From a virus, in the UHGV virus genome UHGV-0211441: a DNA stretch of 35,609 nucleotides; one strand, 5' to 3'. Under the pieces are notes generated by a model. The model ran no database searches. It was not told the origin of the DNA and saw only the letters and a list, made by a program, of their open reading frames with translations. The translations under genes and the position numbers were made by a program. Positions within the stretch are counted from its first letter, which is position 1; every line of letters starts with the position of its first letter. Positions 7,699 through 25,197 of this stretch are shown piece by piece.

Positions 7699-7731
7699 CA
7701 TGTCACGACAACTTAACCCGAGGAAAGACCA

Positions 7732-7896: not shown

Positions 7897-7911
7897 TTCG
7901 AGGAAAGACCA

Positions 7912-8181
7912 ATGAGTGAAGCAAAACCGCAAGATGGCAGCACCGTGAAAGGCTATAGAAAATTAAGCGACGCAGAAATCGCAGCAATGAATCGCCTAAA
8001 AGAACTGAGTCGCAATTTTATTCGCGAGTTGCGAAATATTCAGTTGGATTTGTTACCGCAGGATCCAGTTCTCTCTGATCGCACTGCTGCTTACCGTAGT
8101 GCCGCGTTGGCGACCACAAAAATGCAGGAAGCCTGTATGTGGGGATGCCGTGCGGTAGCCCGCCCGGATGGAGACTGCTAA
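7912..8181 (+). CDS. Small hypothetical protein (89 aa), second moron gene; candidate anti-defence or host-interaction factor
   Basis: Same CGAGGAAAGACCAATG cassette. Followed by its own intrinsic terminator, and inserted between the scaffold and capsid genes. Confidence 0.55.
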   Translation: MSEAKPQDGSTVKGYRKLSDAEIAAMNRLKELSRNFIRELRNIQLDLLPQDPVLSDRTAAYRSAALATTKMQEACMWGCRAVARPDGDC

Positions 8182-8199
8182 ATAATTCCTCGCGAACTA

Positions 8200-8228
8200 A
8201 GCCAGCCTAACCCGCTGGCTTTTTTATT
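8200..8228 (+). terminator. Rho-independent terminator (AGCCAGC-N7-GCTGGCT + TTTTTATTT)
   Basis: Stem-loop and T-run seen directly, 19 nt after the stop of the 89-aa ORF. Confidence 0.7.
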
Positions 8229-8229
8229 T

Positions 8230-8250
8230 GGTCGGGATTCCGACCGCGCA
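8230..8250 (+). repeat. Copy 1 of the repeated hairpin motif GGTCGGGATTCCGACCGCGCA
   Basis: 6-bp stem GGTCGG/CCGACC with loop GATT. 20 of 21 bp are identical to copy 3 at 20961. Confidence 0.8.
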
Positions 8251-8396
8251 CCTCGCTAACAATCACCCCACAACCAGCCCGGCGGGGACGCCGGATACCT
8301 GATTTTCCCGCAATGCGCCAGCGCCAACCGCATTGTGCTGATTTGGGCCGGGAAACCGATACCCCGCAGGCGATACTTTCTGGAGTGATTGTTATG

Positions 8397-9305
8397 TCAT
8401 TTGATACCGCTAAGAACATGATCACCGCTGCGTATGTTCAGCAGTTCCATGATTCTTTCGAAATTGCCGCGCAGCAGAAGGATTCCCGCCTGCAAGCTGC
8501 TGTTTTCGACCGTGGCAACATTACCGGTGCGTCGTTCACCATCAACGATATGGGTACCATCGAAATGACCCAGATCACCGAGCGTTTCGGTGATACCGTC
8601 TGGGATCTGCCTGATGCCGGCACCCGTAATGCGCTGATGGCTGACTATGGCGTATTCGTGCCGGTGGAAAAGCGCGACCTGCGCAAACTGCTGGCTGACC
8701 CGCAGGGGCCATATTTGCAGCTGACGCTGGCCGCATCCAACCGCAAAAAAGATGATGTCATCTATCGCGCACTGCTGGATGACGTTCTGCGCAAAACCTC
8801 CAACACTGGCGCGTACGCTCCGGTTGCGCTTCCCGCATCGCAGAAAATCGTCGCCGGCGGTACCGGGATGACCAAAGCGAAGCTGATCGCCGCCAAAGCC
8901 ATGTTCCGTCGTAACGAGTGTGACGAGCAGAACGGTGAAGAGCTGTATATCACCTACAACGCCGACATGCTGACCCAAATCCTCAGCGATACCACGCTGA
9001 CCAGCGCCGATTTCATGGCAGTGAAAATGCTGCAGGAAGGCGCAGTGTCTGGTAACTGGCTGGGCTTTAAGTGGCTGGCGTATGAAAAACTGGATTCTGC
9101 TTCAGCAGGTGATCCCGCTGTCACCACCAAAACCGCCGCAGCTTGGTGTAAATCTGCTGTGCATTTCGGTACCGGCGAAGAGTACAACGTCGATATCGGC
9201 CCGCGCCGCGATAAAAACAACACCATTCAGATTTCCGTCGATGCGTCCTATGGCGCAGGCCGCGCAGCGGAAAACAAAGTAGTCGCCATCGATTTCGTAG
9301 CATAA
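8397..9305 (+). CDS. Major capsid protein (T7 gp10-like)
   Basis: 302 aa. SD GGAGTGA. Position follows scaffold, and the gene is followed by a strong terminator as with T7 gene 10/Tphi. Confidence 0.75.
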   Translation, partial: SFDTAKNMITAAYVQQFHDSFEIAAQQKDSRLQAAVFDRGNITGASFTINDMGTIEMTQITERFGDTVWDLPDAGTRNALMADYGVFVPVEKRDLRKLLADPQGPYLQLTLAASNRKKDDVIYRALLDDVLRKTSNTGAYAPVALPASQKIVAGGTGMTKAKLIAAKAMFRRNECDEQNGEELYITYNADMLTQILSDTTLTSADFMAVKMLQEGAVSGNWLGFKWLAYEKLDSASAGDPAVTTKTAAAWCKSAVHFGTGEEYNVDIGPRRDKNNTIQISVDASYGAGRAAENKVVAIDFVA

Positions 9306-9321
9306 AGCCGCTGGTGCCTTT

Positions 9322-9349
9322 GCCGGGGGATATCCCCCGGCCTTTTTTC
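9322..9349 (+). terminator. Strong rho-independent terminator (GCCGGGGGATATCCCCCGGC + TTTTTT) after the capsid gene
   Basis: Perfect 20-bp palindrome plus a T6 run, seen directly. Confidence 0.85.
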
Positions 9350-9364
9350 ATCTGAGGTAAGGCT

Positions 9365-9928
9365 ATGGCTGACAGTATTTCTATCTGCTCTAACGCACTG
9401 CTGGCGCTCGGCGCACACCCGATTAACAGTTTTGACGAAAACACCGATCACGCCCGCCTGTGCTCAAACCTTTATCCCACCGTACGCAATAAGCTGCTGC
9501 GCGCACATCCGTGGAACTGCGTTGTAAAACGTGTGGTTCTCTCTCCTGTCATTACAGCGCCGGTATTCGGTTTCCGCTTTCAGTTCGCACTACCCGGTGA
9601 TCTTCTTCGCGTTCTGTCCGTTGGTGAACCTTACGACGATATTCCGTACCGAGTCGAAGGCAACCGGCTGCTGGCGAACGTGCAGGTACTGAAGCTGCGT
9701 TATGTGTTTCGCAACGAAGACGAATCCACCTGGGATGCCGCGCTTGTTGATGTGGCGGAAATGATGATGCAGGCAAAGCTGGCCTATGCCGTCACCGGCT
9801 CTACCAGTCTGCGCGACAGTCTAGCCCAGGAATCGCTGGTACTGCTGAAGCAGGCGAAGGCTGTGGACGGTCAGGAAGACCCACCGGAAGAGCTTGGCGG
9901 CTATCCAACGTACGAATCGAGGTTCTGA
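9365..9928 (+). CDS. Tail tubular protein A (T7 gp11-like)
   Basis: 187 aa. The N-terminal segment resembles the N-terminal region of T7 gp11, as recalled from memory. Position after the capsid gene. Confidence 0.65.
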   Translation: MADSISICSNALLALGAHPINSFDENTDHARLCSNLYPTVRNKLLRAHPWNCVVKRVVLSPVITAPVFGFRFQFALPGDLLRVLSVGEPYDDIPYRVEGNRLLANVQVLKLRYVFRNEDESTWDAALVDVAEMMMQAKLAYAVTGSTSLRDSLAQESLVLLKQAKAVDGQEDPPEELGGYPTYESRF

Positions 9929-9929
9929 A

Positions 9930-11924
9930 ATGCGCGCCAATCTGATTAAAACAAACTTCACCGCCGGCGAAATTTCCCCGCGTCTAATGGGGCGTGTTGA
10001 TATCGATCGCTATGCAAACGGCGCGAAGACGCTGGAAAATAGCGTGGTCGTGGTGCAGGGCGGGGTAATGCGTCGCCCCGGCTCGCAGTTCGTAGCGGCC
10101 ACAAAGTACGGCGATAAAAAATCCCGCCTCATTCCGTACGTTTTCAATCGCACGCAGGCGTACATTCTGGAGTTTGGCGACGGCTATTTGCGAATTTACC
10201 AGGACGGTAAGCAGCTGGTGAACGAAGACAACACGCCGTACGAAATCGCCAGCCCGTACACCTCTGACATGTTGCCATCGGTAAATTACGTTCAGGGTGC
10301 TGATACCATGTTTCTGGTGCATCAGGCCGTTAAACCGCATCGCCTGCAGCGACGCGGGCAAACCGATTGGGTTCTGGAGCCAGCACCATTTATCGTTGAA
10401 CCCTTCGACGAAGTGCGCGACACGCCGCAAAAATGGTGCAAGCCATCAGTGAAAGAATTCGTCGGATCGGAAATCACGTTGACCCTGAGCGATGAAGAAC
10501 CGCCAGAAGGTAGCGAAGACCCGCCGCCGTTTACTGGTGATGGTTGGGTGTCTGAAGATGTGGGCTCGTACGTCAGGATTAACAGCGGTCTGGTGCTGAT
10601 TAAGAGCGTGACCAGTGCGCAGGTTGCCGTCGGTACCATTCGCACCGATTTAAGCGCAACGCAGGCAGCATCGCCGGGCGCCTGGACTCGCGAGGATTCC
10701 GTCTGGACGGATGAATTTGGATACCCGGGTGCAGTAACGCTTTACCAGCAGCGGCTGGTTCTGGCTGGTTCGCCGCAGTATCCGCAAACTATCTGGTGGA
10801 GCGAATCGGGCGTATACCTCTCTTTCGAGCTGGGAACCGATGACGACGACGCGATCAGCTTTACGCTGTCTTCTGACCAGCTTAACCCGATTGTGCACCT
10901 TGCACAGATGAATACGCTAATTGCGCTGACGTATGGCGGCGAGTTCACCATTACCGCCGGCAACGATGCGGCGATAACGCCTACCAATATTTCGGTAAAA
11001 AATCCCAGCCCGTACGGGTGCAATGGGATCCGCCCGGTGCGCGTCGGTACCGAGATTATGTTCGTTCAGCGTTCTGGACGTAAACTCTACGCTGTCGCCT
11101 ATGACCCCGACAGCTATGTAGCCTATTCGGCCAACGATATGACCGTACTGGCGGAACACATCACAGAAGGCGGCGTGATCGATATGGCGTATCAGCAACA
11201 ACCTGATGCGTTTACCTGGCTGGTTCGCAATGATGGCGTAATGGTGACGATGGCTATCGACCGGGCGCAGAACGTTGTCGCGTGGTCACGACAGATCACC
11301 AGTGGTGCGTTTGAGTCCGTAGCGACTATTCCCTCAGCGACTGACGATGTGGTGTACGCCATTGTGCGCCGTGCGGTCAACGGCCAGACCGTTCGCTATG
11401 TCGAAATGTTCAGTAACGCCCTGTACACCGATGCAGCCGTGACGGGATCCAGCGACGCCGGCGCAACGACATGGGGCGGCCTGTCGCACCTCGAAGGCGA
11501 GGCCGTCGATATTGTTGCAGACGGCTCTGTGATGCCGCAGGCGGTCGTATCATCCGGCCAAATCACGCTATCGCGTAAAGCCTACAAAGTCGAAATCGGC
11601 CTGCATTTTGAAACGACCATTACCACGCTGACGCCTGAAGTCGCTACATCAGAAGGTACCACGCAGAATACCCGCAAGCGCACCAGTGAAGTCACTATGC
11701 GTTTCCTCCAAACCACTGGCGCCGAGTGCAACGGCCAGGTGATCCCGTTCCGCACGTTCGGGCCAAAAATCCTCAACCAGCCGGCGCCGTTATTCACCGG
11801 CGATCACTACTGGGGAAAACTAGGCTGGGAACGCGGAGAAGACACGCTGACTATTCAGCAGCGCCAGCCGCTGCCGTTCCACCTTCTCGCCATTGTCATC
11901 GTCTTTACCAGCAACGGGGGCTAA
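9930..11924 (+). CDS. Tail tubular protein B (T7 gp12-like)
   Basis: 664 aa. ATG overlaps the gp11 stop (TGAAATG). SD is GAGG. Synteny supports the call. Confidence 0.6.
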   Translation: MRANLIKTNFTAGEISPRLMGRVDIDRYANGAKTLENSVVVVQGGVMRRPGSQFVAATKYGDKKSRLIPYVFNRTQAYILEFGDGYLRIYQDGKQLVNEDNTPYEIASPYTSDMLPSVNYVQGADTMFLVHQAVKPHRLQRRGQTDWVLEPAPFIVEPFDEVRDTPQKWCKPSVKEFVGSEITLTLSDEEPPEGSEDPPPFTGDGWVSEDVGSYVRINSGLVLIKSVTSAQVAVGTIRTDLSATQAASPGAWTREDSVWTDEFGYPGAVTLYQQRLVLAGSPQYPQTIWWSESGVYLSFELGTDDDDAISFTLSSDQLNPIVHLAQMNTLIALTYGGEFTITAGNDAAITPTNISVKNPSPYGCNGIRPVRVGTEIMFVQRSGRKLYAVAYDPDSYVAYSANDMTVLAEHITEGGVIDMAYQQQPDAFTWLVRNDGVMVTMAIDRAQNVVAWSRQITSGAFESVATIPSATDDVVYAIVRRAVNGQTVRYVEMFSNALYTDAAVTGSSDAGATTWGGLSHLEGEAVDIVADGSVMPQAVVSSGQITLSRKAYKVEIGLHFETTITTLTPEVATSEGTTQNTRKRTSEVTMRFLQTTGAECNGQVIPFRTFGPKILNQPAPLFTGDHYWGKLGWERGEDTLTIQQRQPLPFHLLAIVIVFTSNGG

Positions 11925-12376
11925 TGATGATTCGTAACGCCACAGCCGGGGATATTCCGGCGCTTATCGAGCTGGGAACCCGGATGTATCTCGAGTCCCG
12001 TTACTCGCAAAACTCGCCGTTTGATGCTGATAAATGCGCAGAACTGGCGCAAAGCCTGATTTATTCGCCGTCTGGTTGCGTACTGGTCGCCGAAAAAGAC
12101 GGGCAGGTGATCGGCTGGCTTGGCGGCGGTATTGCCGAGCAATTTTTTTCCCGCCAGTTGATGGCCTTCGAGTATGGCTTATTCGTCGCGCCAGAACATC
12201 GTGGCGGCAGCGCCGGCCCGAGACTGGCCCGCGCGTTTATCGACTGGTCAAAAGAGCACGGCGCCGCCGTTATCAACATGGGGATCACCACTGGGGTGCA
12301 CGCAGAACGCACCGGCCAGTTGTATTCGCGTCTCGGCCTGCAGCAAACAGGCCTGCTTTATTCGATGGAGGTTTAA
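11925..12376 (+). CDS. GNAT-family N-acetyltransferase (RimI-like size), embedded in the virion module
   Basis: 150 aa. Acetyl-CoA binding motif VIGWLGGGIAEQF...RGGSAGPRL (Q/RxxGxG/A-like). Confidence 0.7.
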
Positions 12377-12378
12377 CG

Positions 12379-12867
12379 ATGTGCACTGGCGTAGAAATTG
12401 CCCTGGTGGCGTCCACGGTGTTAGCCGCTGGCGGCGCAGCGTATAGCGGCCAGCAGCAGAAAAAAATGGCGAATTATCAGGCCGCCCAGGCTGAAGCTGA
12501 CGCTGACGCGTCAAAAGCGGCTGCAAAGGTTGAAGCCGACCGTATCCGTAAAGCCGGGCGTGAACAGGCTGCTGCGGCTAACGCTTCGCTGGCGGCGTCG
12601 GGTGTTGAAACCGGCGAAGGTACCGCGCTGCGTATCACCTCTGGAATTACTGAAGACGCCGAACAGGACGCCTACCAGACGATCCTTAATGGCGTGAATT
12701 CGTCTAACCGTCTGCAGGCGCAGGCGCAAGCTGACCGCATCAGCGGAAGAAATGCAGCGACGGCTGGAAACATCAGCGCCGGCAGTTCGCTTTTAAGCGC
12801 TGGCGGGACGGCGTATAGCGGCTGGCAAAAGGCTAAAACTGGCAAATACGGATTATATGCGGAGTAA
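12379..12867 (+). CDS. Internal virion protein candidate (gp13/gp14-like), Ala/Gln-rich
   Basis: 162 aa. SD GGAGG. The tool's 277-aa ORF (12034..12867) is an in-frame upstream extension. Confidence 0.4.
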   Translation: MCTGVEIALVASTVLAAGGAAYSGQQQKKMANYQAAQAEADADASKAAAKVEADRIRKAGREQAAAANASLAASGVETGEGTALRITSGITEDAEQDAYQTILNGVNSSNRLQAQAQADRISGRNAATAGNISAGSSLLSAGGTAYSGWQKAKTGKYGLYAE

Positions 12868-12872
12868 TAAAA

Positions 12873-15587
12873 GTGAGAATTCCAACGGGTAATTTTGGCA
12901 ATGTAACGCCGCAGGTACAACCTACGCGCGTCGCAGTAAGCAATGTGGGCGCTGTGGGTAACGCAGTATCCGGTTTTGGTGCTGCTGCGGGGCAGGTAGC
13001 AGAGCAGGTGCAGCGCGATCAGGATAAAGCCGACGTAGCGGCCACGCAGGCTATTCTGACCGATCTGGAAGCTAAATCTAATGACCGCTGGGAAAACCCG
13101 GAGACGGGCGCCACGGTCACGCGTCAGGGCTTTAAATCGTCCGGTGTGGTCACTGATATGGATAAGGCCGATGCTGGCGATTACGAGGAAGCGCGCAAGC
13201 GCGTTCCGCCCAGCCAGTTAAACTATTTTGATGCTCAGTGGAAAGCGGGGCAGGTACGCCGGACAAGCACCTATAGCGGTTTTGAACGTGCACAGACTGA
13301 GGAAGCCCAACGCCAGCAGCTTAACGCGACGGTGACCTCTTCAGTTGAACAGGAGGCCAGCGCCTACGATAACCCGATGCAGGCAGGGCTGATACGCAGC
13401 GCCCGTAAACACTCTATCGAGATGTATGGCCAGGCGCGCGGCTGGCCGCAGGAACGTATCGACGCGGCGGTATCGGAAGCGAACCAAAAAGCGCTGGAGC
13501 AGCGCGCGCAGAACTACGCGGTAACCAATCCAACCGGCTGGCTTAATGGCGATTTTACGCTGGTCAACAGTAGCACCGGCGAACTTGATATGCGCGCCGT
13601 TGGCCTGGTGGAATCTGGCGGCAAGCACCGCAATGCAGACGGTAGCCTTGTTACATCCCCCGCGGGCGCGCAGGGTGAATTCCAGTTGATGCCTGACACC
13701 GGGAAAGAACTGGCGTCTAAACGTGGCGTAGAGTACAACCCGGACGACCCTGTGCAGCATGCGCAGCTGGCGCGCGATTATGCGGGGCAGCTCAGTAAAA
13801 AATATCAGTCTGAAACGTTAGCCGGCGCTGCGTATAACTGGGGGATGGGTAACGTCGATAAGCTGATCGCTAAAGTCGGCGACCCGCGAAAAGGCGAAAT
13901 CTCAATGGCGGATTTTGTTAAGCAGCTGCCAGCCGAAACGCGTGGTTGGCTTTCTCGCTACAACAAAAACAAAACTGGTCTCGACCCGGTAGCAGTAAAC
14001 AAAATCGACAATATCGCCGAATCGCAGATCCGCCAGCAGCGTACGGCGCTTCGCCAGCAGATGGAGCCAATCGTTAATAATACATTTTCTCAGCTGTACA
14101 ACGGTGATGTTCCCGAAGCGATGCCTAATGCCGAAACCATCATGTTCATGTACGGCGAGAAAGGGCAGCAGGTAGTAAAGCAGCTGGATATCGCGATAGA
14201 TACCGCCAGAACATTCCAGGCTATCCAGTACGTTACCCCGGCAGAACAGCAGGCCGAACTGGCGAAAGTGAAGCCGCAGGCAAACGACCCGGATTATGCG
14301 CTGAAACTCGATGCGTATGGCAAACTCAGTGCGCTGGTGCAGAAGAGCAACGCCAATATTCAGGCGCAGCGTGATTCCGCCCGTTTTAATGACGCGCTGC
14401 TCTCCGGCGAGAAACTCGACCCGAGCAACAAATCCATGCAGAAGGCGGCGGACAATACGCCATCGGCGCTTAACTTCCGCATTAACGACGCCACCACTCA
14501 CGACGCCATCGTACAGCAGGTTAACCAGACGGGCATTATCCCATCGCAAGTTACATCGCAGCTGAATGCTATTTCTCGCTCTGATAGCCCAGACGTGGTG
14601 AAGCAGGGGGCTAATTTGTTCGATTCCCTGTACAGGGCGGATCCTGCATCTATTAGCGACATGCCAAAGGATATGCAAAGTTTTTACCTGACAGTTAAAC
14701 AGTTATCCGATGCTGGAATGGCACCCGATGCGGCTGTAAAACAAGCGCAGAACGTTACTTATAACCAGACTGACGCCCTGAAATCGCAATTGTCTTCTAC
14801 GCAGAGCACGAAGGAATACAAAAAAGAGCGTGCCAGCGCGATGGGTTCCGCAGTCAGCAGCATGAAACCATGGTACAGCTTTGGCGGTCCTGCAGCGGAT
14901 GACCAGAATCTTAACGCCGTCAATTTCCGTAACGACTACCAGTCACTTTATGACATCAACTATCGCAACTCGGGTGGTAATGCTGATGTTGCCAAAAAGA
15001 TGACTAATACCCAGATCGCCCGTACCTGGAGTCTTAGCGATGTAAATGGCAGCACCCAGTTTATGAAATACGCGCCTGAAGCGCTCTATAACTACGGGCC
15101 GTCTGGTTGGCAGGCTGCGCAGTGGAAAGAAGAAAAAGAGCGTCTGACTTATGGCGAACGCGGAGAAAAAATTGAAACCAGTCCGACCCAACTAGGAATT
15201 ACATCAGGTTCAGCCCCTGTTATTACATCAAATACACCTGAATCCCGAATCGGTGGTGAACTGGAAATTATCCCTGACGTTTTAACCACGCGTAACGGTG
15301 ATTACGCCATTATGGTACGCATGAAAGATAAAGATGGTAACGAGAGCGTACAGCCATATTACGATAAATTCAGACGTCCCATGCGCTGGAAACCGTCGCT
15401 GGAAGACTGGGAACCATATAAAAAAATGCAGCAAGAGAGAGAACAAAAAGATCAGGAAAAAGTTATTCGTGGTGAAAGTAGATATGACTTTAAAACGAAG
15501 CATCGCGCGCTCGATGAGCAATATCAGCGTTTGCATGATGAGCGTATGAACCGGGTTAAAAACTACTTTTCATGGAGCAATGAATAA
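12873..15587 (+). CDS. Internal virion/ejection protein with soluble lytic transglycosylase (SLT) domain (T7 gp16 N-terminal-like)
   Basis: 904 aa, GTG start with GGAG. SLT motifs: LVESGG (catalytic Glu-Ser), GEFQLMP, AAYNWG. Confidence 0.75.
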   Translation: MRIPTGNFGNVTPQVQPTRVAVSNVGAVGNAVSGFGAAAGQVAEQVQRDQDKADVAATQAILTDLEAKSNDRWENPETGATVTRQGFKSSGVVTDMDKADAGDYEEARKRVPPSQLNYFDAQWKAGQVRRTSTYSGFERAQTEEAQRQQLNATVTSSVEQEASAYDNPMQAGLIRSARKHSIEMYGQARGWPQERIDAAVSEANQKALEQRAQNYAVTNPTGWLNGDFTLVNSSTGELDMRAVGLVESGGKHRNADGSLVTSPAGAQGEFQLMPDTGKELASKRGVEYNPDDPVQHAQLARDYAGQLSKKYQSETLAGAAYNWGMGNVDKLIAKVGDPRKGEISMADFVKQLPAETRGWLSRYNKNKTGLDPVAVNKIDNIAESQIRQQRTALRQQMEPIVNNTFSQLYNGDVPEAMPNAETIMFMYGEKGQQVVKQLDIAIDTARTFQAIQYVTPAEQQAELAKVKPQANDPDYALKLDAYGKLSALVQKSNANIQAQRDSARFNDALLSGEKLDPSNKSMQKAADNTPSALNFRINDATTHDAIVQQVNQTGIIPSQVTSQLNAISRSDSPDVVKQGANLFDSLYRADPASISDMPKDMQSFYLTVKQLSDAGMAPDAAVKQAQNVTYNQTDALKSQLSSTQSTKEYKKERASAMGSAVSSMKPWYSFGGPAADDQNLNAVNFRNDYQSLYDINYRNSGGNADVAKKMTNTQIARTWSLSDVNGSTQFMKYAPEALYNYGPSGWQAAQWKEEKERLTYGERGEKIETSPTQLGITSGSAPVITSNTPESRIGGELEIIPDVLTTRNGDYAIMVRMKDKDGNESVQPYYDKFRRPMRWKPSLEDWEPYKKMQQEREQKDQEKVIRGESRYDFKTKHRALDEQYQRLHDERMNRVKNYFSWSNE

Positions 15588-18481
15588 TGCCTATCTATCC
15601 GCAATCTGATGTTCCAACTAGCGTAATGGATAATGCCCTTCAGGCACCAACGGGTTTTGATGTGTCGTTGCCAGAAGGTACAAACCCGGAACCCCAGCAA
15701 CCACAGCCGTCTGTTTGGGGCGCAGCTTTTCGTCAGAATAATCTTTTGGCTGGAATGTTCCGCCCGGCTAAGCAGTTTGAACCCGTAGAGGGGTATAACC
15801 CTTATGCGGATAAAAGCGAAATAAAGGGCTACGAGCACTGGGGTACCGCTTTCGCGGATTCTCGATCGCCAGAGGAAACCGCCTGGATTAAAAACCAGAT
15901 AGACGATGAAAACGAAGACCGCCGGGTTCTGTCTGAAGCAGGTGCTGAAGGAACTTTAGCCAGTATAGCCGCCGGAGTTATCGACCCCGTCACAGTCGCA
16001 TCGATGTTTATCCCCGGTGCGCAGGGAAGCCTGGCGGTTCGTATTGGTTCTCAGGTTGCTATTGGCGCCGCCGGTACCGCGCTTAGCGAGATCGCGCTCA
16101 ATAACGAGCAGTACACCAGAACAGCAAGGGAGAGCGCCGCACACATCACAGCCGGCGCACTTCTCAGCGGTGTATTTGCCACTGCTGGCGCGATGATCAC
16201 CCCGTCGGTAAGAAACGCGGCCACGCGTGAAGTGGCGGAGGCGCTCGATAATATGAACGCCTCGCCAACGATTAACAACGCAGCCGACGCCCTGGCGGAT
16301 ACCTTACCGAATGGTGGCAGCGTCGGCGCCATGCGTATTCGCGAAGCGACACTGGAAGATCTCACGCCAGTGTCTGGCGGCCCGCTTGGGAAGCTGGCTA
16401 AAAAGGCTGGTAGCTATCTGACGCCGATCACCCGCCTGATGGAATCCCCATCAAAAGAAGCGCGCCGGACAGCGCTGGAGCTGGCAGAGAATAACTTCAC
16501 GCTGGAAGGCAACCTGCGCGGTATTGAAACGCCGGTTGCAGCTGAGACGCGCGTACGTGGCTGGCGCCGCGAAGAGGCGGCCGTCGTTACTGCGAATAAG
16601 CAGGCATACACCCAGTACAAAGCCGAAGGCGGCGATATGGGCTATACGGCCTTCCGTGAACAGGTTGGCGAGGCGCTGCGCAACGGCGACGTGCACGTGA
16701 ATGCGAAAGTGCAGGAAGCGGCACAGGCAATGCGCACAGTCATTAACCGCGTGAAGACGGCACAGCAGGAACTGGGCTTGCTTCCGCCGGATGCCGAACT
16801 GAAAGCGATGGGACAGACCAGCTATTTCCCGCGCGTGTACAAGGTAGGGAAAATCGTTAGCGAGCGCGATAAATTCCGCAATATGCTGGTTGACTGGTGG
16901 TCACGCGGTGAGAAAACCATGTCTCGCGAAGATGCAGAAATCGCTGCCGATACCACGATTAACCGTATTGTCGGGGCCAAAATTCCTCAGGAGTTCGCCA
17001 ACGTCTTTATGGTGAAAGCGCCGGGTAGCACTAAATCGCGCACGTTGAGCGTTCCCGATCGCCTGATGAAAGATTATCTGGAGAGCGACGCTAACTACGT
17101 CCTGCAGCGTCATATTCGTGAAGCCTCGGCAGAAATCGAATTAACTCGCACCTTCGGCAACAAGTCGTTGGATTCGCAGCTCGCTGCCATCCAGGACGAA
17201 TACGATGCGCTGATGCGTTTACGCCCGGCAGAGCAGGAAAAGCTGGCGAGGGCACGCGAAGCCGACCTGCGCGATATTCTGGCGCTCCGCGATCGCCTCG
17301 TTGGTACCTACGGTATGCCGGATGACCCATCATCATTTTTCGTCCGCGCCGGTGCTTTCCTGCGTAGCGCCAACTTTGTAACGAAACTTGGCGGCATGAC
17401 GGTATCCGCTATCCCGGATCTGGCACGCGGCATGATGGTTAACGGCTTCAGCAATACCATGCGTGGGTATGGCGCACTGATCACCCGCTCGCCGGCTTAC
17501 CTCGCCAGCCGGGCGGAGCAGAAGAAAATGGCCGTTGGGCTGGAAACCATACTGCATACCCGCGCGCGTACGATGGGGGATCTGGTCGATAGCTCTTCAC
17601 GTACAACAGCTGCAGAAGCTGGCATGGAACGTATTACCGATGTGTTCGGCAAGCTGACCATGATGGGCCACTTTGACGATATGAACAAATCGGTGAATGG
17701 CATGATCACGTCCGACGGTATTCTGTCCGGCGCATTCCCTGCGAAGCGCCTGGCAAAACTCGGCATCAATGAGAATATGGCCGAACGCATTCAGCGAGAA
17801 TTTCAGAAGCACGGCGAAATTATTCAGGGCTGGCATATTGGCAATTTCGAAAAATGGGATGACCAGTACGCTGCCGGCTTGCTGCAATCTGCTGTGCTGA
17901 AGGATGTAAACAATACCGTTATCACGCCGGGTATCGGCGATACGCCGCTGTGGGCCAGTACCCCGCTGGGGAAAACTGTATTCCAGTTTAAGTCTTTTGC
18001 TACAGCGTCATATAACCGCGCGACTCTCGGCGGTCTGCAGGAAGGTACCGCGCAATTCTATTACGGTACCGCCTTCCAGATTGGCCTGGGCTCTTTGACC
18101 TATGCGCTTAAGCAGGCGGCTAACGGTCGGGAGGTTGATTTGACGCCGCAAAAGATGGTACTCGAGGGCATCGACCGTTCTGGTATCCTCGGCCCGCTGA
18201 TGGAGTATAACAACATGGCGGAAAAGGCAACTGGTGGGATGATAGGACTCGGGCCATTGCTCGGCACCGGTACGCAGTCCCGCTACGCCAGCCGTGGCTT
18301 TATCGGTTCTGCTCTGGGGCCAACCTTTGGCCTGCTGGATACCGTTACCGATGTAACCGCAGGCGTGCTCAATGGCGACGCCGGCGACCGAGTGCTGCAT
18401 AGCGTGCGTACGCTGTTACCAGGTAATAATCTGTTCTGGATTGCGCCGCTGATTAACCAGGTAGACCCCGGTATGCGATAG
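15587..18481 (+). CDS. Internal virion core protein (gp15/gp16-like)
   Basis: 964 aa, ATGA overlap with the upstream gene. Size and synteny support the call. Confidence 0.55.
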   Translation: MPIYPQSDVPTSVMDNALQAPTGFDVSLPEGTNPEPQQPQPSVWGAAFRQNNLLAGMFRPAKQFEPVEGYNPYADKSEIKGYEHWGTAFADSRSPEETAWIKNQIDDENEDRRVLSEAGAEGTLASIAAGVIDPVTVASMFIPGAQGSLAVRIGSQVAIGAAGTALSEIALNNEQYTRTARESAAHITAGALLSGVFATAGAMITPSVRNAATREVAEALDNMNASPTINNAADALADTLPNGGSVGAMRIREATLEDLTPVSGGPLGKLAKKAGSYLTPITRLMESPSKEARRTALELAENNFTLEGNLRGIETPVAAETRVRGWRREEAAVVTANKQAYTQYKAEGGDMGYTAFREQVGEALRNGDVHVNAKVQEAAQAMRTVINRVKTAQQELGLLPPDAELKAMGQTSYFPRVYKVGKIVSERDKFRNMLVDWWSRGEKTMSREDAEIAADTTINRIVGAKIPQEFANVFMVKAPGSTKSRTLSVPDRLMKDYLESDANYVLQRHIREASAEIELTRTFGNKSLDSQLAAIQDEYDALMRLRPAEQEKLARAREADLRDILALRDRLVGTYGMPDDPSSFFVRAGAFLRSANFVTKLGGMTVSAIPDLARGMMVNGFSNTMRGYGALITRSPAYLASRAEQKKMAVGLETILHTRARTMGDLVDSSSRTTAAEAGMERITDVFGKLTMMGHFDDMNKSVNGMITSDGILSGAFPAKRLAKLGINENMAERIQREFQKHGEIIQGWHIGNFEKWDDQYAAGLLQSAVLKDVNNTVITPGIGDTPLWASTPLGKTVFQFKSFATASYNRATLGGLQEGTAQFYYGTAFQIGLGSLTYALKQAANGREVDLTPQKMVLEGIDRSGILGPLMEYNNMAEKATGGMIGLGPLLGTGTQSRYASRGFIGSALGPTFGLLDTVTDVTAGVLNGDAGDRVLHSVRTLLPGNNLFWIAPLINQVDPGMR

Positions 18482-19003
18482 CTATTTCGATTTACATGAT
18501 TCTGGAGAAACCCCAAACCCAAATATGAGGGTTTTTCCTGAATCACTGTAGTAATTGAGCATTATTGTCTTATGTTCTTTCCGTGCTTCGTAGAATAGTC
18601 TCTCCTGTGATGACATAGGGTAAATACCATCAGGTGTACAATATAATTTTTTTAGGTCTTCTTTTGTCGAATTTATAGCTGCTTCCGAGGAGGATTTTAT
18701 AAAATCCTTTGTGTAAACGTTATCGCCGTAACTGAATACAGTTTTACTTCCTTCCGCATAATTTTTATTAGATTCGCTTAGGTCTGCATTCTCTTTGTAG
18801 GAACGTAGGTTTAATACTGACACATTTAGTACAATTTTTTTACCGTTATCGATACCGCTAATGACCTTATAGTCAGTGTACGGGTTAGTAATTTGTATTC
18901 CTGGGCCTGATATTGGGACGATATATCCTGAATCCTCAATTAAATCTGTGGAGGCAGAGGCAATCAAGGGAAAAATTAGCAATAATGGGATGAGTTTTTT
19001 CAT
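18482..19003 (-). CDS. Secreted/periplasmic protein of unknown function (moron), signal peptide MKKLIPLLLIFPLIASA|ST, two Cys
   Basis: 173 aa, antisense to the structural operon. Markedly AT-rich and Asn/Lys/Ser-rich. Signal peptide with AxA signal-peptidase I cleavage site, no lipobox. Confidence 0.65.
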   Translation of the reverse strand: MKKLIPLLLIFPLIASASTDLIEDSGYIVPISGPGIQITNPYTDYKVISGIDNGKKIVLNVSVLNLRSYKENADLSESNKNYAEGSKTVFSYGDNVYTKDFIKSSSEAAINSTKEDLKKLYCTPDGIYPMSSQERLFYEARKEHKTIMLNYYSDSGKTLIFGFGVSPESCKSK

Positions 19004-19020
19004 TCTAATGTTCCTTGTGA

Positions 19021-19037
19021 TAGTCAGGATTCCGACC
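19021..19037 (+). repeat. Copy 2 (degenerate) of the hairpin motif: TAGTCAGGATTCCGACC
   Basis: 14 of 16 positions match the other copies. Lies in the divergent region between the antisense moron and the terminase genes. Confidence 0.7.
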
Positions 19038-19084
19038 TTTGAAAGAATACATCATAGCCCTATGGATAACCACGGGGCTTTTTT

Positions 19085-19432
19085 ATGCATTCAGATTACA
19101 AAACTCGCCTTACTGCTCTTAGCGATAAGCTCACCGATGTAGTTCTGGAAGAAGCCGATCCGGACAACTGGCCGGGGGCAGGGAAGGAAATCACAAAGCA
19201 CACCAAACAGGAACGCGGCGATCGGTACTGGCATAAGAAGAATGCGGCTGCATCGCTAACTCTGCTGGTAAAAGTCCATTCACTTATTGGTATGCATACT
19301 CGCGGAGGCACGCCGAAGCCCGGCGGAGAAGATCCGGACGATGAAGCGTTCCAGTTAGGTCAGCAGGTAGCAGCTGCTGAGCGTAAAGCGCTGGAAGTCA
19401 TCGAGAGGATACAGCACAAAGGCAAAAAATGA
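19085..19432 (+). CDS. Candidate terminase small subunit (T7 gp18-like)
   Basis: 115 aa. Its stop overlaps the terL start (ATGA). No strong SD. Confidence 0.4.
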   Translation: MHSDYKTRLTALSDKLTDVVLEEADPDNWPGAGKEITKHTKQERGDRYWHKKNAAASLTLLVKVHSLIGMHTRGGTPKPGGEDPDDEAFQLGQQVAAAERKALEVIERIQHKGKK

Positions 19433-21039
19433 TTTCGTTCCTGGCCTTCTTTTTGATGTGGGCGGAACGGATGAACTGGGATGTGCCGGACTGCCACTAT
19501 AAAGCCTGCCACTGGCTGGAGCATCGCGGAAACCTCGCGGTGCTTCGCTGTTTTCGTGGCTTTGGTAAATCAACCATCCTGGGTGTTTATAACGCCTGGC
19601 GGTATTACTGCGATCGCCAGTACCGTATTCTGCATCAGTCTGAATCCGACACAACCGCCAGAAAGACCAGCCGCGATACACAAAACGTTCTGCGCAATCA
19701 TCCTCTGACGAAAGGCATGTTGCCGGACGGCATCGGTACCATCGAGCAATGGTGGGTAAACGGCGCGCTGGATATGCGTAACGCCAGCATGTTCGCGAAA
19801 GGCATTCTGTCGAACGTCACCGGCGCCCGTGCCAACGAATGCCAGAATGATGACGTGGAAGTGCCCGGCAATATCCAGACCCCGGAGGCTCGAGAAAAAC
19901 TGCGCTATCGCCTGAGTGAGCAGACGCATATTTTGATACCCGGAGGCCGGAAATTGTTTATCGGTACGCCGCATACACACGATAGCCTTTACGACGAGAA
20001 AGAAGCAGAGGGCGCTGATTGCCTGACGATAAAGCTATTCGATAAAGAGCACCGCGTCGAGGCGAAGAAGGCAACCAAAAAACGATACCGGATACCGTTC
20101 CGCCCGGAATATGTTTTCGTGGGTATCCACAAGGCCGCCCGGTTATTGATCGAGGGTACTGATTATCGATTGACGGAAGACGGTGTAGAGTTCGCGGCGC
20201 CGCCTGAAACTGTCGTGGATTTTTATGCCGGCTGCGCGTGGCCAGGCCGTTTCGATCATGATGAATTACTGCTGCGCCGTAAAGAGTGCCGCACCGTCAA
20301 CGAATGGGATAGCCAGTACCAGTTGCACAGTAAACCGGTTGGCGAGGTTCGCCTCGATCCCGACCGTATTCGCGAGTACAACGTCCAGCCTGAAATTCGT
20401 TACGCGAACCGTTCCTGCTCGATGTGGCTGGGCCAGACGCAAATCGTCGGTGCTGTCGCCTGGTGGGATGTGGCCACCGGCAAAGTTAAGGCCGATGCTT
20501 CGGCATTTTCCCTTATTTTCACCGATGCCCGCGGGCATCTTTACTGGCACGTTTGCCAGGGATTAACTGGTGAGCTGGCAGAGTTTGACGACAACGACAA
20601 AATCACCGGCGGTCAGGTAATGCAGATTAAAGAGCTGGTGCTGAAGTACCAGATCCCGCTGGTCTGTGTAGAAGTAAACGGCCCCGGCAGTTTCGCCGGG
20701 AAGTTGCTTATTCAGGCCCTGAAGGGTACCGGCTGCGGCGTACGGGAAGAATTCAGCGTCACCAACAAACAAAAACGCATCCTCGATGCATTCGAAGCGC
20801 CGCTGTCGTCCCGGTTCCTGTGGGCGCATACCGATGTGCTAGATGGCCCGATGTATGACCAGATGCGCGATTTTAACCCGGCGTTAACTAACCAACCAGA
20901 CGACTTTATTGATTCGGGATCCGGTGCGATCAGCGCTACACCTGTACGTATCGGGAAATTAGTCGGGATTCCGACCGCGCAGGCGAGGGAGCATTGGCAG
21001 CCATATGATGGCGACATTTCGGTCGCTGTAGATTACTAG
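19429..21039 (+). CDS. Terminase large subunit (T7 gp19-like)
   Basis: 536 aa. Walker A CFRGFGKST; family assigned from motif recognition. Confidence 0.8.
   Translation: MISFLAFFLMWAERMNWDVPDCHYKACHWLEHRGNLAVLRCFRGFGKSTILGVYNAWRYYCDRQYRILHQSESDTTARKTSRDTQNVLRNHPLTKGMLPDGIGTIEQWWVNGALDMRNASMFAKGILSNVTGARANECQNDDVEVPGNIQTPEAREKLRYRLSEQTHILIPGGRKLFIGTPHTHDSLYDEKEAEGADCLTIKLFDKEHRVEAKKATKKRYRIPFRPEYVFVGIHKAARLLIEGTDYRLTEDGVEFAAPPETVVDFYAGCAWPGRFDHDELLLRRKECRTVNEWDSQYQLHSKPVGEVRLDPDRIREYNVQPEIRYANRSCSMWLGQTQIVGAVAWWDVATGKVKADASAFSLIFTDARGHLYWHVCQGLTGELAEFDDNDKITGGQVMQIKELVLKYQIPLVCVEVNGPGSFAGKLLIQALKGTGCGVREEFSVTNKQKRILDAFEAPLSSRFLWAHTDVLDGPMYDQMRDFNPALTNQPDDFIDSGSGAISATPVRIGKLVGIPTAQAREHWQPYDGDISVAVDY
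20961..20981 (+). repeat. Copy 3 of the hairpin motif AGTCGGGATTCCGACCGCGCA, inside the 3' end of terL and 76 bp upstream of the tailspike gene
   Basis: Identical over 20 bp to copy 1. Confidence 0.8.
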
Positions 21040-21056
21040 CCGCCGGAGCTTCCCTT

Positions 21057-23435
21057 ATGTCGGTACCTAACCAGACCCCCTATAACATTTATACTGCGAA
21101 TGGTCTTACGACTGTTTTCACGTATGAGTTTTATATCATCAGCGCCAGCGACCTGCAGGTGAGCATAAACGGAGACGTTGTTACCAGTGGGTACACCGTT
21201 GCAGGTGTAGGCAATAAGGACGGCGGCGATATTACCTTTCTGACACCACCGGCAAACGGTGCCGTCGTCATGCTTGAACGTGTGGTGCCAACGTACCGAC
21301 TCACTGATTACCAGGACAACGGCGATCTGCTGGCGGATACCGTTAACAAGGATTTTGACCGTATCTGGATGGCTATCCAGAGAGCTTTTATCGATCTTGG
21401 TTTCGCACTGACGCGTCCGATTTTTGGCGGGCCGTTCAATGCAAAAGGTTACCGTATTGCTAATCTTGGCGACCCGGTAGACCCGCAGGATGCAGTTACA
21501 AAAAAATGGTATCAGGAACAAAATTCTTTAAGTCTCACAAGGACGCTTCGGGTACCAAAAAATGAGGCGCTAACCCAGCTCCCGCCGGCTCATCTGCGTA
21601 AAGGTAAAGTACAGGCATACGATGCGGCAACGGGTGATAGCTTGCCTGTGTTCCCGGGTAGCATTGACTGGCAAACGGCGCTTAATTTGCAAAGCGCTGA
21701 CGGCTTAAAATATATCGGTCGCTGTCCATCTATTGAGGCTCTTCGTGGTATCGAACCGACGAAGATACAGCAGAAAATTGATGTAGCTGAATACTTCCCC
21801 GGCTTAGGTTGTGGCGGTGGGTATTTTGAGTATGACCATCTGGACGAGGAAAGTATCGACGATGGCGGAAGTGTTATTGTCACCAGCGGCGGTGCCCGAT
21901 GGAAACGAGTAACAGATCAGTTACTGCCGGTTCATTTTGGTGCTAAGCCAGGAAACACAGATGACTCTACAGACGCCATACTGCGTTACGCTGCAGCTTC
22001 GGAAGGTAAGACCGTAGATTTCCGTGGCAGCTACTGGACAATTTCCTCAACCCTCGATTTAACGAAGGTTGCCAGAATTATCAGCGATACATCAGGGATT
22101 TTTAAAGTAAACCCGGTTGGCTTTAATGGCGACTACGCAATCACTATAGGTAATCCAAATTTACCTTATGGTGAAGGCAGAGCTAATCGCGTCGTAGTTG
22201 TCGGCAGTCTTTATGTTGATGCACTCAACCGTGATGCAGCGCTGCACGGTGTTTATTTAAAAGGGCAGTGGCTTAATATTGGTCATATTCGTGCCAGTGG
22301 TTTTAATGGAATAGGTATTCACAGGGAAGCAATATGGGATTCTACCTTCCTGCGCTTGCAGACTGAACTTTGCGGCAATACATCTAACTATGCCTATTAT
22401 TCTACGGGAGGCGGTGACACCGATAATACAAACCATGTTGTGTCTATGCAGGTAGAACAGTCATACGACAAAGCGATTTATGCATCTGGTATCAGGGATG
22501 TTATTCATAACATTCACTGTGAAAGAACTTATATCACGACTACAGAGGCGGGTGACACTACGATCGCCGGTTTAAATTATATTACTTGTCGCTTTAATCT
22601 AGGTAACTCCGTTATCGGTCAGGCTGTCATTGATGCATCACCGAAAGCAACTGCACCAGACGGAACACCGACGGTTTCGACAGTACCCTCAGTAGTGATG
22701 ACGATGGATTTTTCTGACGTCAGAACAATTGCTGCGCCGGGTGCGGTGGTCTCCTGTGACTTTGGGCGTTCGACTACATACGGCGGCCTGGTTGCCGGGG
22801 ATATCATTATTGCAGAACCTGCGTCTAAAATTACGCTGGAATCCCCGAGGGCAACAGGCACGTTGCAGGTAGGGTCTGAAATTATCGTTAATAACCCGGA
22901 TGTGGCGACATTCAGACCGCGCGCGAATGCGCTTGGCGTTCAGATCAATAGTGGCGTAATAGGCACATTGCTGTTTAATAATAACTATCGTGGAAATATT
23001 ACTTTTAATAACGTCACGGTAACTAATCCAGTAGGGGATTTACGCGCACCGGCGGGTTCAGGTTCAGCAACATCCATTGGGGCTTTATATGCCCCTGTGA
23101 CTTTTAACGAATGCACCTTATCAACAGTGAACGGTGCTTTTGGGTCGAGGGCGGTATTTAAAGGCGGGAGGATTGGTACGGTTGCGCTGAGTTCGCAAGC
23201 TGCTTTCGAATTTTACGATATTAATATCGGTGTCTTTGGCTTTTCTGAAAACAGAGCATTTATAACCCGTGGTGTAAAAGCCGATGTAGTGAATAGCTGG
23301 AATTATCCAGCGCATTATCAATGGCCTGCCGGCGCGATATCAGAACGAATTGGGAAAATTAATTCCGGAGATGGTGTTGTATATCTGAGTAAAGATAGCG
23401 CAACAATCAACTGGGCACCTGTAGTGTCTGCATGA
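21057..23435 (+). CDS. Tailspike/tail fibre: T7 gp17-like N-terminal adaptor domain plus large C-terminal receptor-binding domain (possible beta-helical polysaccharide depolymerase)
   Basis: 792 aa. The N-terminal ~150 aa align with the T7 gp17 N-terminal region (recalled from memory, motif-level only). The C-terminus is Gly/Thr/Asn-rich, typical of beta-helix spikes. Confidence 0.75.
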   Translation: MSVPNQTPYNIYTANGLTTVFTYEFYIISASDLQVSINGDVVTSGYTVAGVGNKDGGDITFLTPPANGAVVMLERVVPTYRLTDYQDNGDLLADTVNKDFDRIWMAIQRAFIDLGFALTRPIFGGPFNAKGYRIANLGDPVDPQDAVTKKWYQEQNSLSLTRTLRVPKNEALTQLPPAHLRKGKVQAYDAATGDSLPVFPGSIDWQTALNLQSADGLKYIGRCPSIEALRGIEPTKIQQKIDVAEYFPGLGCGGGYFEYDHLDEESIDDGGSVIVTSGGARWKRVTDQLLPVHFGAKPGNTDDSTDAILRYAAASEGKTVDFRGSYWTISSTLDLTKVARIISDTSGIFKVNPVGFNGDYAITIGNPNLPYGEGRANRVVVVGSLYVDALNRDAALHGVYLKGQWLNIGHIRASGFNGIGIHREAIWDSTFLRLQTELCGNTSNYAYYSTGGGDTDNTNHVVSMQVEQSYDKAIYASGIRDVIHNIHCERTYITTTEAGDTTIAGLNYITCRFNLGNSVIGQAVIDASPKATAPDGTPTVSTVPSVVMTMDFSDVRTIAAPGAVVSCDFGRSTTYGGLVAGDIIIAEPASKITLESPRATGTLQVGSEIIVNNPDVATFRPRANALGVQINSGVIGTLLFNNNYRGNITFNNVTVTNPVGDLRAPAGSGSATSIGALYAPVTFNECTLSTVNGAFGSRAVFKGGRIGTVALSSQAAFEFYDINIGVFGFSENRAFITRGVKADVVNSWNYPAHYQWPAGAISERIGKINSGDGVVYLSKDSATINWAPVVSA

Positions 23436-23443
23436 GGATAGTT

Positions 23444-23656
23444 ATGGAAATTGTAAAATCTGAGAATGGTTACGTTGTGCGTGAAAACGGTCAGTGGAAG
23501 GAGGGGTGTTACGAAACTGAAGAGGTAGCAGAATTAGCGGTAACAAATTTATCCGACATGGATCTATCCCAGCTTTGGATGCTTGTTCTTATGGATAACA
23601 GAAAAGCCATAACGATGGCTGATTATGAAAGTTATATCAGCACCATGCAGCAGTAA
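23444..23656 (+). CDS. Hypothetical small acidic protein downstream of the tailspike
   Basis: Start chosen at MEIVKSENG with a GAGGA SD sequence. The tool ORF begins 12 nt earlier. Confidence 0.4.
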   Translation: MEIVKSENGYVVRENGQWKEGCYETEEVAELAVTNLSDMDLSQLWMLVLMDNRKAITMADYESYISTMQQ

Positions 23657-23667
23657 TTGAATTAGAT

Positions 23668-23683
23668 AGTCGGGATTCCGACC
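23668..23683 (+). repeat. Copy 4 of the hairpin motif AGTCGGGATTCCGACC, followed by a nested inverted-repeat structure (23690..23738)
   Basis: Exact match to the core. Downstream lie GCCTTACCC...GGGTAAGGC 9-bp arms enclosing an ATCACT...AGTGAT inner palindrome. Confidence 0.8.
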
Positions 23684-23739
23684 TGTTTAACGCCTTACCC
23701 TCACATCACTACACACAGTGATCCCCGTGGGGGTAAGGC

Positions 23740-23970
23740 ATGCGAATGAAGAATTTGCCGGATGTGGCGGCGGGAGCGTCGTATATAACATCCACCGTTA
23801 GTGGCAGCTACTGGTTGCTGCAACTTCTCGATAAGGTAAGTCCGAGCCAGTGGGCAGCTATCGGTGTTCTGGGTAGCCTTTTCTTTGGGCTGCTTACCTA
23901 CCTCACAAATTTGTACTTCAAAATCAAAGACCGACGAAAAAAGGCACAGGGCTATGAGCAACAAAGCTAA
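23740..23970 (+). CDS. Pinholin, phage 21 S21-like (class II holin, dual-start MRM)
   Basis: [41 protein letters not shown] is near-identical in pattern to S21. Two TMDs and a charged C-terminus. Confidence 0.85.
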
Positions 23971-24490
23971 GTTCAGTGCCGCAATGCTGGCACTCCTGGC
24001 CGCCGGTGCGTCAGCGCCGGTACTGTTCGATCAGTTTATAGGTGAACGCGAGGGTAACACGCTAACGGCGGTTATCGATCCCGGTGGGGTTTGGTCAATA
24101 TGCCGGGGGGTAACGCGCATCGATGGCCGCCCGGTAGTGAAAGGAATGAAGTTAACGCAGCGCCAGTGTGACCATTACAACGCGATCGAACGCGATAAGG
24201 CGCTGGCATGGGTACAAAAGAATGTTCACGTTCCGCTAACTGAGCCGCAGAAAGTCGGCATTGCCAGCTTTTGCCCGTACAACATCGGGCCGGGTAAATG
24301 CTTCCCTTCGACGTTTTATCGCAAGCTGAATGCCGGCGACCGCAAAGGGGCATGTGCTGAGATACGGCGCTGGGTATTCGATGGCGGCCGGGATTGCCGG
24401 TTAACGAAAGGGCAGGCCAACGGCTGTTACGGGCAGGTTGACCGCCGTGATCAGGAAAGTGCGCTGACGTGCTGGGGGCTTTACGAATGA
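23954..24490 (+). CDS. SAR endolysin (T4-lysozyme-family muramidase, R21-like)
   Basis: N-terminal weakly hydrophobic Ala/Gly-rich SAR domain ([18 protein letters not shown]). Catalytic E-x8-D-x5-T region [22 protein letters not shown]. Overlaps the holin 3' end. Confidence 0.85.
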
Positions 24491-24961: not shown

Positions 24962-25099
24962 TTTTTGCTTATTTGGCTGTTATTCTGTCAGAAGATGGTG
25001 GCTGGAAATGGAGTAAGTAACTGATTGTTATAAGCTCAAATAATGCTCTATGTTCGGATTAAAATTGTATGTGATTGATAATTATATCTTTCACGACCA

Positions 25100-25155: not shown

Positions 25156-25197
25156 TTGGGATAAAGTAGAATAATCAAAGCAATAAGCAGTGTCGTG

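Follow-up and report, generated by a model that had tools for sequence, protein, structure and literature searches.

How does a temperate phage with T7-type structural genes switch on its late genes when it encodes no RNA polymerase? The virus genome UHGV-0211441 raises this question. The whole stretch of DNA analysed here, called the window (35,609 nucleotides), was scanned with PHROG, Pfam and PADLOC; the results show it to be the complete genome of a temperate podophage, and no RNA polymerase, sigma factor or Q-family protein was found in it. All large open reading frames (ORFs) of the window can be assigned to functions other than RNA polymerase. This bears out an earlier, sequence-only reading of the same DNA, which had stated that a phage RNA polymerase is absent and had pointed to a repeated motif at the boundaries of late gene modules. 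We analysed this motif, a 16-bp palindrome, and propose that its copies belong to five activator-dependent sigma-70 late promoters without a -35 element, with a 98-aa helix-turn-helix (HTH) protein as the likely activator. On the basis of the sequence comparisons described below, we regard this proposal as probable.

The palindrome is imperfect, with arms GGTCGG and CCGACC and a variable 4-bp centre. Its half-sites are about 9 bp apart, and such a spacing in an inverted repeat is typical of a site for a dimeric HTH protein. Exact RGTCRGGATTCCGACC occurs four times in the window, at 8230, 19022, 20961 and 23668, and in none of 100 shuffles (expectation 0). The sequence-only reading had reported these four copies, placing the second one base off at 19021, and had overlooked a fifth, degenerate copy that was found by allowing mismatches. 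All five copies lie on the late-gene (plus) strand, 40-150 bp upstream of a gene module, and there are none in the early region. Copy 0 (P0; GGTCGGGAAACTGACC, 4262-4277) has the degenerate centre; it falls within the 3' end of the HTH gene, and the first late gene (ATG at 4325) follows some 45 bp later. Copy 1 (P1; GGTCGGGATTCCGACC, 8230-8245) has the intrinsic terminator 8199-8229 upstream of it and the capsid gene downstream. Copy 2 (P2; AGTCAGGATTCCGACC, 19022-19037) is ahead of terS/terL, 19 bp from the start codon of an antisense ORF (18482-19003) and 48 bp before terS. Copy 3 (P3; AGTCGGGATTCCGACC, 20961-20976) is in frame within terL, where codons 512-516 read VGIPT, and its end is 80 nt upstream of the tailspike ATG. 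Copy 4 (P4; AGTCGGGATTCCGACC, 23668-23683) comes after ORF 23432-23656 and precedes the holin gene and with it the holin-lysozyme-Rz cassette. The surroundings of these four copies had been described correctly before, except that copy 3 had been put 76 bp from the tailspike gene; likewise, copies 1 and 3, said to be identical over 20-21 bp, are identical across the 20 nt GTCGGGATTCCGACCGCGCA.

A megablast search of window 7000-25000 against GenBank phages gave zero matches, and relatives were therefore located via E. coli prophages and protein search. Three close comparators were used: the E. coli prophages L001 (~92% identity) and L002 (~80%), and Yersinia phage YeP5. Aligning the five window copies with the orthologous copies of these three revealed a hexamer, NANNNT, 12 bp after every window copy, with invariant A(-11) and T(-7). 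The claim of the sequence-only reading that no sigma70-like -10 box stands beside the motif is thus wrong. On the plus strand, the hexamers are CACAAT for P0 (4290-4295, overlapping the HTH stop codon), AACAAT for P1 (8258-8263), CATCAT for P2 (19050-19055), GAGCAT for P3 (20989-20994, terL codons E521-H522) and TACCCT for P4 (23696-23701). In the -10 element recognised by sigma-70, A(-11) and T(-7) are the two bases of greatest importance. When IMG/VR was scanned for the exact motif, 158 unique sites were obtained, and the only information peaks outside the 15-mer were A at +14 (89%), A at +17 (63%) and T at +18 (87%). A+14/T+18 was present in 126/126 copies from loci encoding relatives of the window's late proteins and in 5/30 chance copies from unrelated viral contigs. 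As a negative control we used an exact-motif scan of 596 Gb of bacterial genomes; among the matches listed, which are single chance copies in unrelated taxa, 4/121 had A+14/T+18. The distance between motif and hexamer is 12 bp, and 11 in a few relatives. In loci selected by TerL (see below), the hexamer drifts within each site class at inner positions only (e.g., TACCCT/TACTCT/TAACCT/TACCTT and GAACAT/GAGCAT/GAAGAT/GAAAAT), and A2 and T6 never change.

No -35 hexamer accompanies these -10-like hexamers. A 16-18-bp spacer puts it inside the motif (GGATTC or GGGATT), where 0-2 of six positions match TTGACA. A consensus promoter scan called no promoter at any of the five copies, and no conserved -35/-10 pair was found upstream of or within the motif. 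If the hexamer occupies -12 to -7, the palindrome extends from about -40 to about -25 and is centred near -32.5. Since NANNNT is found at every copy, the palindrome resembles the portion of a complete, weak sigma-70 promoter that covers the -35 region. Promoters for alternative sigma factors (sigma-E, -32, -54 and -28) were considered as well, and the sites gave no match to their consensus sequences.

Conservation of the motif at syntenic positions, which had been put forward as a check, was found in all close relatives examined. Retrieval by TerL, blind to the motif, gave 82 loci (86-100% amino-acid identity). The motif lies inside terL in all 82, at +1533 (+1536 in one), and about 400 bp before terL in 81; in the sole locus without this second copy, the contig has only 279 bp before terL. 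Of the loci reaching past the tailspike, most have a copy before the lysis cassette, 3.4-6.6 kb from terL. Given this variable distance, copy 4 moves together with the lysis genes. A search with the HTH protein, also blind to the motif, gave 80 loci (49-100% identity). Among the matches listed (37 rows), copy 0 lies beside the HTH stop codon in 33 of 33 distinct HTH/motif combinations, and in most rows a second copy follows 3.4-5.3 kb on, at the position of the capsid copy of the window; rows without it include short contigs. The arms GTCGG/CCGAC are fixed in these loci, and the centre varies among relatives (GATT, GAAA, GAAT, GATC). In L002, copy 0 is the canonical GTCGGGATTCCGACC at the same place. 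The copy within terL gives a measure of selection: across 74 unique genes, the motif's five codons have a summed third-position entropy of 0.21, the lowest of 533 terL windows, whose mean is 4.86 +/- 1.43. Furthermore, T(-7), the third base of codon 522, never changes though the residue varies (H/D/N). This indicates that selection acts on the DNA and not on the protein. The motif is real and under strong selection. IMG/VR contains 525 relatives of TerL and 222 relatives of the 98-aa HTH protein, and related prophages are known in E. coli, Klebsiella, Raoultella, Citrobacter, Serratia and Yersinia.

Which protein could read the palindrome? The gene of the 98-aa XRE-type HTH protein (4001-4297, plus strand; PHROG 16553), our candidate late-gene activator, is the last of the early-right gene string and is located just upstream of, and outside, the first motif-controlled unit. 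Homologues in L002 and YeP5 (47-53% identity) stand immediately before copy 0. The early modules of L002 and YeP5 (DNA polymerase, VapE primase, LexA-like repressor) are unrelated to the lambdoid module of the window (CI-like, CII-like, O, DnaB, NinB), and the HTH gene keeps its place before copy 0 despite this. An AF2 model of the protein has a pLDDT of 75.6 overall and of 86-91 over residues 11-70, and the modelled fold appears to be a lambda-repressor/XRE-type HTH of the five-helix type with flanking strands. Proteins of the lambda-repressor/XRE class bind palindromes as dimers. The best Foldseek matches are P22 c2, CapH, the restriction-modification (R-M) controller C.BclI, SinR and HipB; P22 c2, C.BclI, SinR and HipB match with probability 1.0 and a target-normalised TM of 0.55-0.7, at an E of only ~0.03. 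Structural matches in BFVD are XRE proteins. Pfam HTH families scored below threshold (HTH_3, 16.8 bits with a cut-off of 23; HTH_23, 19.4 with a cut-off of 24.6), and a PDB search with the HTH profile gave nothing significant (E at least 0.035). The C-terminal tail (FGRETDQ...) is disordered, and the DNA coding for it is the putative P0 promoter itself.

The family is large and unnamed, with 1288 clusters at 50% identity in public data (E <= 1e-3). A distant homologue on a metagenome contig has the exact motif and the hexamer GACACT in the 3' end of its own gene; two further contigs with distant homologues were too short for their context to be read. Another homologue (L407, 10001-10339; P0036, E 1e-24) lies next to an integrase and beside a P4-like island (Ash, AlpA, DUF927 primase), with no motif copy and no late genes there. 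It may be what is left of a prophage, or a satellite may carry it as a copy of the late activator of a helper. From the linkage of gene and motif, it is plausible that the 98-aa protein is the reader of the palindrome and the activator. The sequence-only reading had named this protein as a candidate for a late activator bound to the motif. The syntenic motif and the co-travelling HTH gene speak for that suggestion, and its premise about the -10 box has fallen.

In the mechanism that we propose, the five copies would be the upstream halves of five late promoters for host sigma-70 RNA polymerase. Each promoter would consist of an A/T-rich stretch, the 16-bp palindrome in the usual place of the -35 element, and the weak NANNNT 12 bp on. 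Because there is no -35 element and the -10 is weak, the promoters should stay silent until an activator binds the palindrome. The activator would most likely be a dimer of the 98-aa protein, made from the early-right gene string, and its binding would recruit or stabilise RNA polymerase. We infer binding by this protein and its contact with polymerase from the linkage and the geometry of the sites. Likewise, we infer that transcription starts at the five sites, with predicted starts 6-8 nt past the hexamers, near 4302, 8270, 19062, 21001 and 23708.

The resulting transcription units would follow the late genes, which are in T7-type order. The P0 unit would contain portal (5008-6630), scaffold (6850-7698) and two morons, and would end at the intrinsic terminator 8199-8229 (AAGCCAGC...GCTGGCTT plus a T-run, plus strand) directly before P1. 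This terminator is conserved in L002 and YeP5, and a weaker one lies upstream of P0. One of the genes here, between scaffold and capsid and just before the terminator, encodes an 89-aa moron (7912-8181, plus strand) with an Acb2/Tad1 hairpin domain (Pfam PF24729, E 1e-16), likely an anti-CBASS/anti-Thoeris nucleotide sponge to judge from this match; it is absent from this place in L001. The P1 unit would contain the capsid gene (true ATG 8394, to 9305) between terminators, since a strong intrinsic terminator with 8 G-C pairs and a T-run (9322-9351, plus strand) lies just past it; read-through would extend into the genes for tail tubular A and B, which come after capsid, and then for the internal virion proteins (12034-18481). 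The leader from the predicted P1 start (~8270) to the capsid ATG is ~124 nt. The capsid leader (8264-8393) holds a hairpin, CCGGCG-GGGA-CGCCGG, at 8279-8294, and its overall fold is no better than that of shuffles (z -0.7). A degenerate motif-like GCCGGGAAACCGATA at 8348-8362 in the same leader recurs in many relatives.

The P2 unit would contain terminase, i.e., terS (start 19085) and terL (19429-21039). A terminator-like hairpin (AGCCC...GGGCT plus U6, 19056-19084, plus strand) begins right after the P2 hexamer and abuts the terS ATG. Read-through RNA can form this hairpin (-13.2 kcal/mol, z -3.3), whereas RNA started at ~19062 cannot (-1 kcal/mol); the L002 equivalent (-14.4, z -5.4) behaves alike. 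No T-run follows the motif itself at any copy, and the motif does not have the form of an intrinsic terminator. The antisense ORF near P2 (18482-19003, minus strand) encodes a 173-aa protein of PHROG 8033, which is of unknown function, with no Pfam or PADLOC match. Its gene separates terS from the last of the internal virion genes as an insertion; L001 has a shorter ORF of another size at this position, and L002 has none. A minus-strand TATGAT, a possible -10 for this ORF, overlaps the P2 hexamer. The P3 unit would contain tailspike (21057-23435), and the P4 unit the lysis cassette of holin, lysozyme and Rz (from 23740). In the holin leader (window 23684-23750; 1959-2025 in L003), CCTTACCC can pair with GGGTAAGG around both the Shine-Dalgarno sequence and the dual start ATG-CGA-ATG. 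In YeP5, another pair, AAGCACC/GGTGCTT, occupies this position. These pairings point to an 'sdi' structure like that of lambda S, governing the choice between holin and antiholin starts.

The motif has a counterpart in a sister clade. Alcaligenes phage Piluca (L005) and Acinetobacter phage TPWB-05 (L004), with capsids 47-52% identical to that of the window, lack the window motif. Side-by-side reading of their upstream regions surfaced a non-palindromic ACACCCAACAAAC, which is present in 6-7 copies on the late strand at syntenic late-module boundaries (Piluca, 6, 4837, 19458, 22690, 24199 and 26830; TPWB-05, 8451, 11949, 18230, 20861, 22547 and 25755). A de novo search for repeated 11-mers in the distant relatives L004-L006 showed nothing obvious. 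The intergenic copies are followed by a GC hairpin and a T-run abutting the ATG. Both phages encode a divergent 134-aa HTH homologue with a different putative recognition helix. A different helix together with a different motif fits a co-evolving factor-site pair.

Several observations weigh against the proposal of activator-dependent promoters read by the HTH protein. The hexamers are weak, matching TATAAT at 3-4 of six positions, and dimeric HTH activators do not usually have their site centred near -32.5. Because many of the 126 sites are orthologous, the counts make them seem more independent than they are; independent support comes from the five paralogous site classes and from the drift of inner positions. 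No fixed-distance -10 was seen at the ACACCCAACAAAC copies of the sister clade, and the promoter logic may not generalise. The HTH protein was assigned by linkage, and conserved late proteins such as the 150-aa product of the first late gene (4316-4768) are co-inherited with the motif equally. The motif arms and the recognition helix are too conserved in the clade for covariation to be observable. The last two points leave room for a promoter element that is read by another factor, such as the 150-aa product, which has a basic N-terminus and could act in a positive-feedback loop, or a host factor. Indeed, all conserved late proteins co-occur with the motif, and the link to the HTH gene is positional. 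The 150-aa protein, however, has no detectable DNA-binding domain, and since its gene is downstream of P0, P0 must first be fired by another factor. Of the conserved DNA-binding genes, on the other hand, that of the HTH protein alone is placed where the motif does not control it, and it persists where the entire early module has been exchanged. Also, there are zero motif copies in the host flanks of L001 and L002. We therefore think that reading by another factor is rather unlikely.

A further point against activation is that PHROGs labels the family PHROG 16553 'transcriptional repressor'. Together with the overlap of the site with the -35 region, which is a classic repressor position, this label would suit an operator for negative control, at which the HTH protein represses otherwise active late promoters. 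Promoters with no -35 and weak -10 hexamers would have little activity that needs repression. Moreover, the HTH gene is in the early lytic string and not in the immunity region, the motif is absent from the cI/cro region of the window, and in L002 the immunity module differs while the motif is the same. We give repression hardly any credence. Other sites were considered and rejected, namely an immunity operator, a pac site and a T7-type promoter, for which no phage single-subunit RNA polymerase is encoded.

There are two further rival explanations. In the manner of lambda Q, the HTH protein could bind the palindrome and join a polymerase paused at NANNNT, which would become terminator-resistant. 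The HTH gene is at the lambdoid Q position, after nin-region genes and before late genes, a terminator-like hairpin with a U-run follows P2 closely, and strong terminators are present within the late region. Loading of this kind would need a constitutive promoter, yet there is no conserved -35/-10 pair for it at or upstream of the motif; in addition, a terminator lies close behind only one of the five sites, there are five separate sites and not one, and the HTH protein has no similarity to any Q family. This makes Q-like loading very unlikely. Alternatively, the motif could work as an RNA hairpin in the late transcript, i.e., a processing site, a stabiliser or a nut/boxB-like antitermination signal; RNA processing or antitermination had also been suggested by the sequence-only reading. 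The motif is strand-specific, four of the five window copies fold with a 5-9-bp stem and a tetraloop, and in one relative an A...T double change, GTCAGGATCCTGACC, is symmetric. Symmetric changes are equally expected of a palindromic protein site, however, and 47 of the 158 copies (~30%) are GTCAG...CCGAC with an uncompensated A.C mismatch. Window copy 2 is unfolded (-4.4 kcal/mol, z +0.34), a 5-6-bp stem is too short for RNase III, no Rfam match was found, and the fixed-distance A/T signature is not explained by a hairpin. Copy 0 is at the very start of the late region, and with terminators directly upstream of P1 and, weaker, before P0, upstream transcripts would mostly end short of the motif. 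An RNA hairpin is thus disfavoured, and its chance of being right is slight.

Other features of the window were noted as well. The integrase gene (25285-26331) follows the lysis cassette, and the lambdoid early region includes the CI-like gene (30808-31209, minus strand), the CII-like gene (31543-31989) and a gene for a DNA polymerase III theta-like (HOT-like) 77-aa protein (35312-35545, plus strand). An MT-A70 family DNA methyltransferase gene (1-672, plus strand) is at the window start, possibly cut by the window edge. A two-gene AbiL abortive-infection/defence system (734-2492, minus strand) consists of AbiLi, an AAA_21 ATPase (1269-2492), and AbiLii, which is RloB-like (734-1258), and sits in a low-GC (36-40%) island within the nin region; L001 has DUF2971 and an IS110 element at this spot instead. 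The lysis cassette adjoins the integrase gene within the window (gap 24961-25285), whereas the lysis genes of L001 abut host DNA. Therefore, the window appears to be an excised, circularly permuted phage genome, and attP is probably in this gap.

The proposed promoters resemble several known systems, each in a different respect. In logic they would be like those of Mu Mor/C and P2 Ogr, in geometry closest to lambda CII promoters, and in fold and size the HTH protein would be closest to R-M controllers. With Mu Mor/C, P2 Ogr and P4 Delta they share one small activator for several late promoters, a -10 without a -35, and a conserved dyad. Mor/C and the zinc-finger Ogr belong to other protein families, and the centres of their sites are farther upstream (about -43.5 and -55); the HTH protein has no detected homology to Mor/C or Ogr. 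Lambda CII promoters (pRE, pI and paQ) also have a phage activator site straddling -35 and centred near -32/-33. They have no usable -35 and a poor -10, and are silent without activator. As a tetramer, however, CII recognises direct repeats (TTGC-N6-TTGC), and the genes that it switches on are those for lysogeny, whereas the window has an inverted repeat, an XRE-like protein and, as targets, five late structural and lysis units; it also carries a separate CII-like gene besides that of the 98-aa protein. R-M controller C proteins (C.AhdI, C.BclI and C.Kpn2I) are XRE-fold dimers of ~80 aa that bind palindromes overlapping -35 and activate sigma-70 transcription, and the HTH model has some of its best structural matches in this group; sequence similarity to them is insignificant. 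C-boxes are of GACT-N3-AGTC type and form paired operators for activation and then repression, in contrast to the single GTCGG-N4/5-CCGAC palindrome per promoter of the window. As in lambda, where the Q gene is located, the regulator gene is at the end of the early-right operon, before the late genes; unlike lambda, the window shows no Q-family similarity and has five sites instead of a single pR', with no constitutive promoter there. The layout is also like that of class III promoters of the T7 group, i.e., a short conserved element repeated before structural modules whose genes are ordered alike. The capsid gene, with a promoter of its own before it and a terminator behind it, parallels phi10-gene 10-Tphi of T7. 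What differs is that the window encodes no phage polymerase and that its element is a palindrome with a -10 of sigma-70 type instead of the 23-bp promoter of a single-subunit polymerase.

Late promoters that depend on an activator have long been known and the principle is not new, but the variant described here appears undescribed. The literature searched (including YeP4-6 and late promoters of T7-like temperate phages) gave no description of the motif or the 98-aa protein, and no account of how late genes are switched on in polymerase-less T7-type temperate podophages. The outcome of this analysis is a testable map of five promoters with predicted starts and a single small candidate activator. 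Such a map aids prophage annotation, with regard to late operon boundaries and the insulation of morons, and a 16-bp operator with a weak -10 could serve as a compact, tightly off, phage-orthogonal expression switch. More broadly, the 98-aa protein may found a large, hitherto unrecognised family of late activators that replace -35 recognition from a palindrome at about -32.5, with activator and cassettes substituting for a phage RNA polymerase in many temperate phages with T7-type structural modules, and with lineage-specific motifs co-evolving (e.g., GTCGG...CCGAC versus ACACCCAACAAAC); this extension is tentative, and we consider it somewhat doubtful. In Enterobacterales, temperate podophages with T7-type structural genes but without an RNA polymerase are frequent. 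If the proposal is true, an activator-cassette system would keep the T7-like promoter-cassette layout in these phages without the polymerase.

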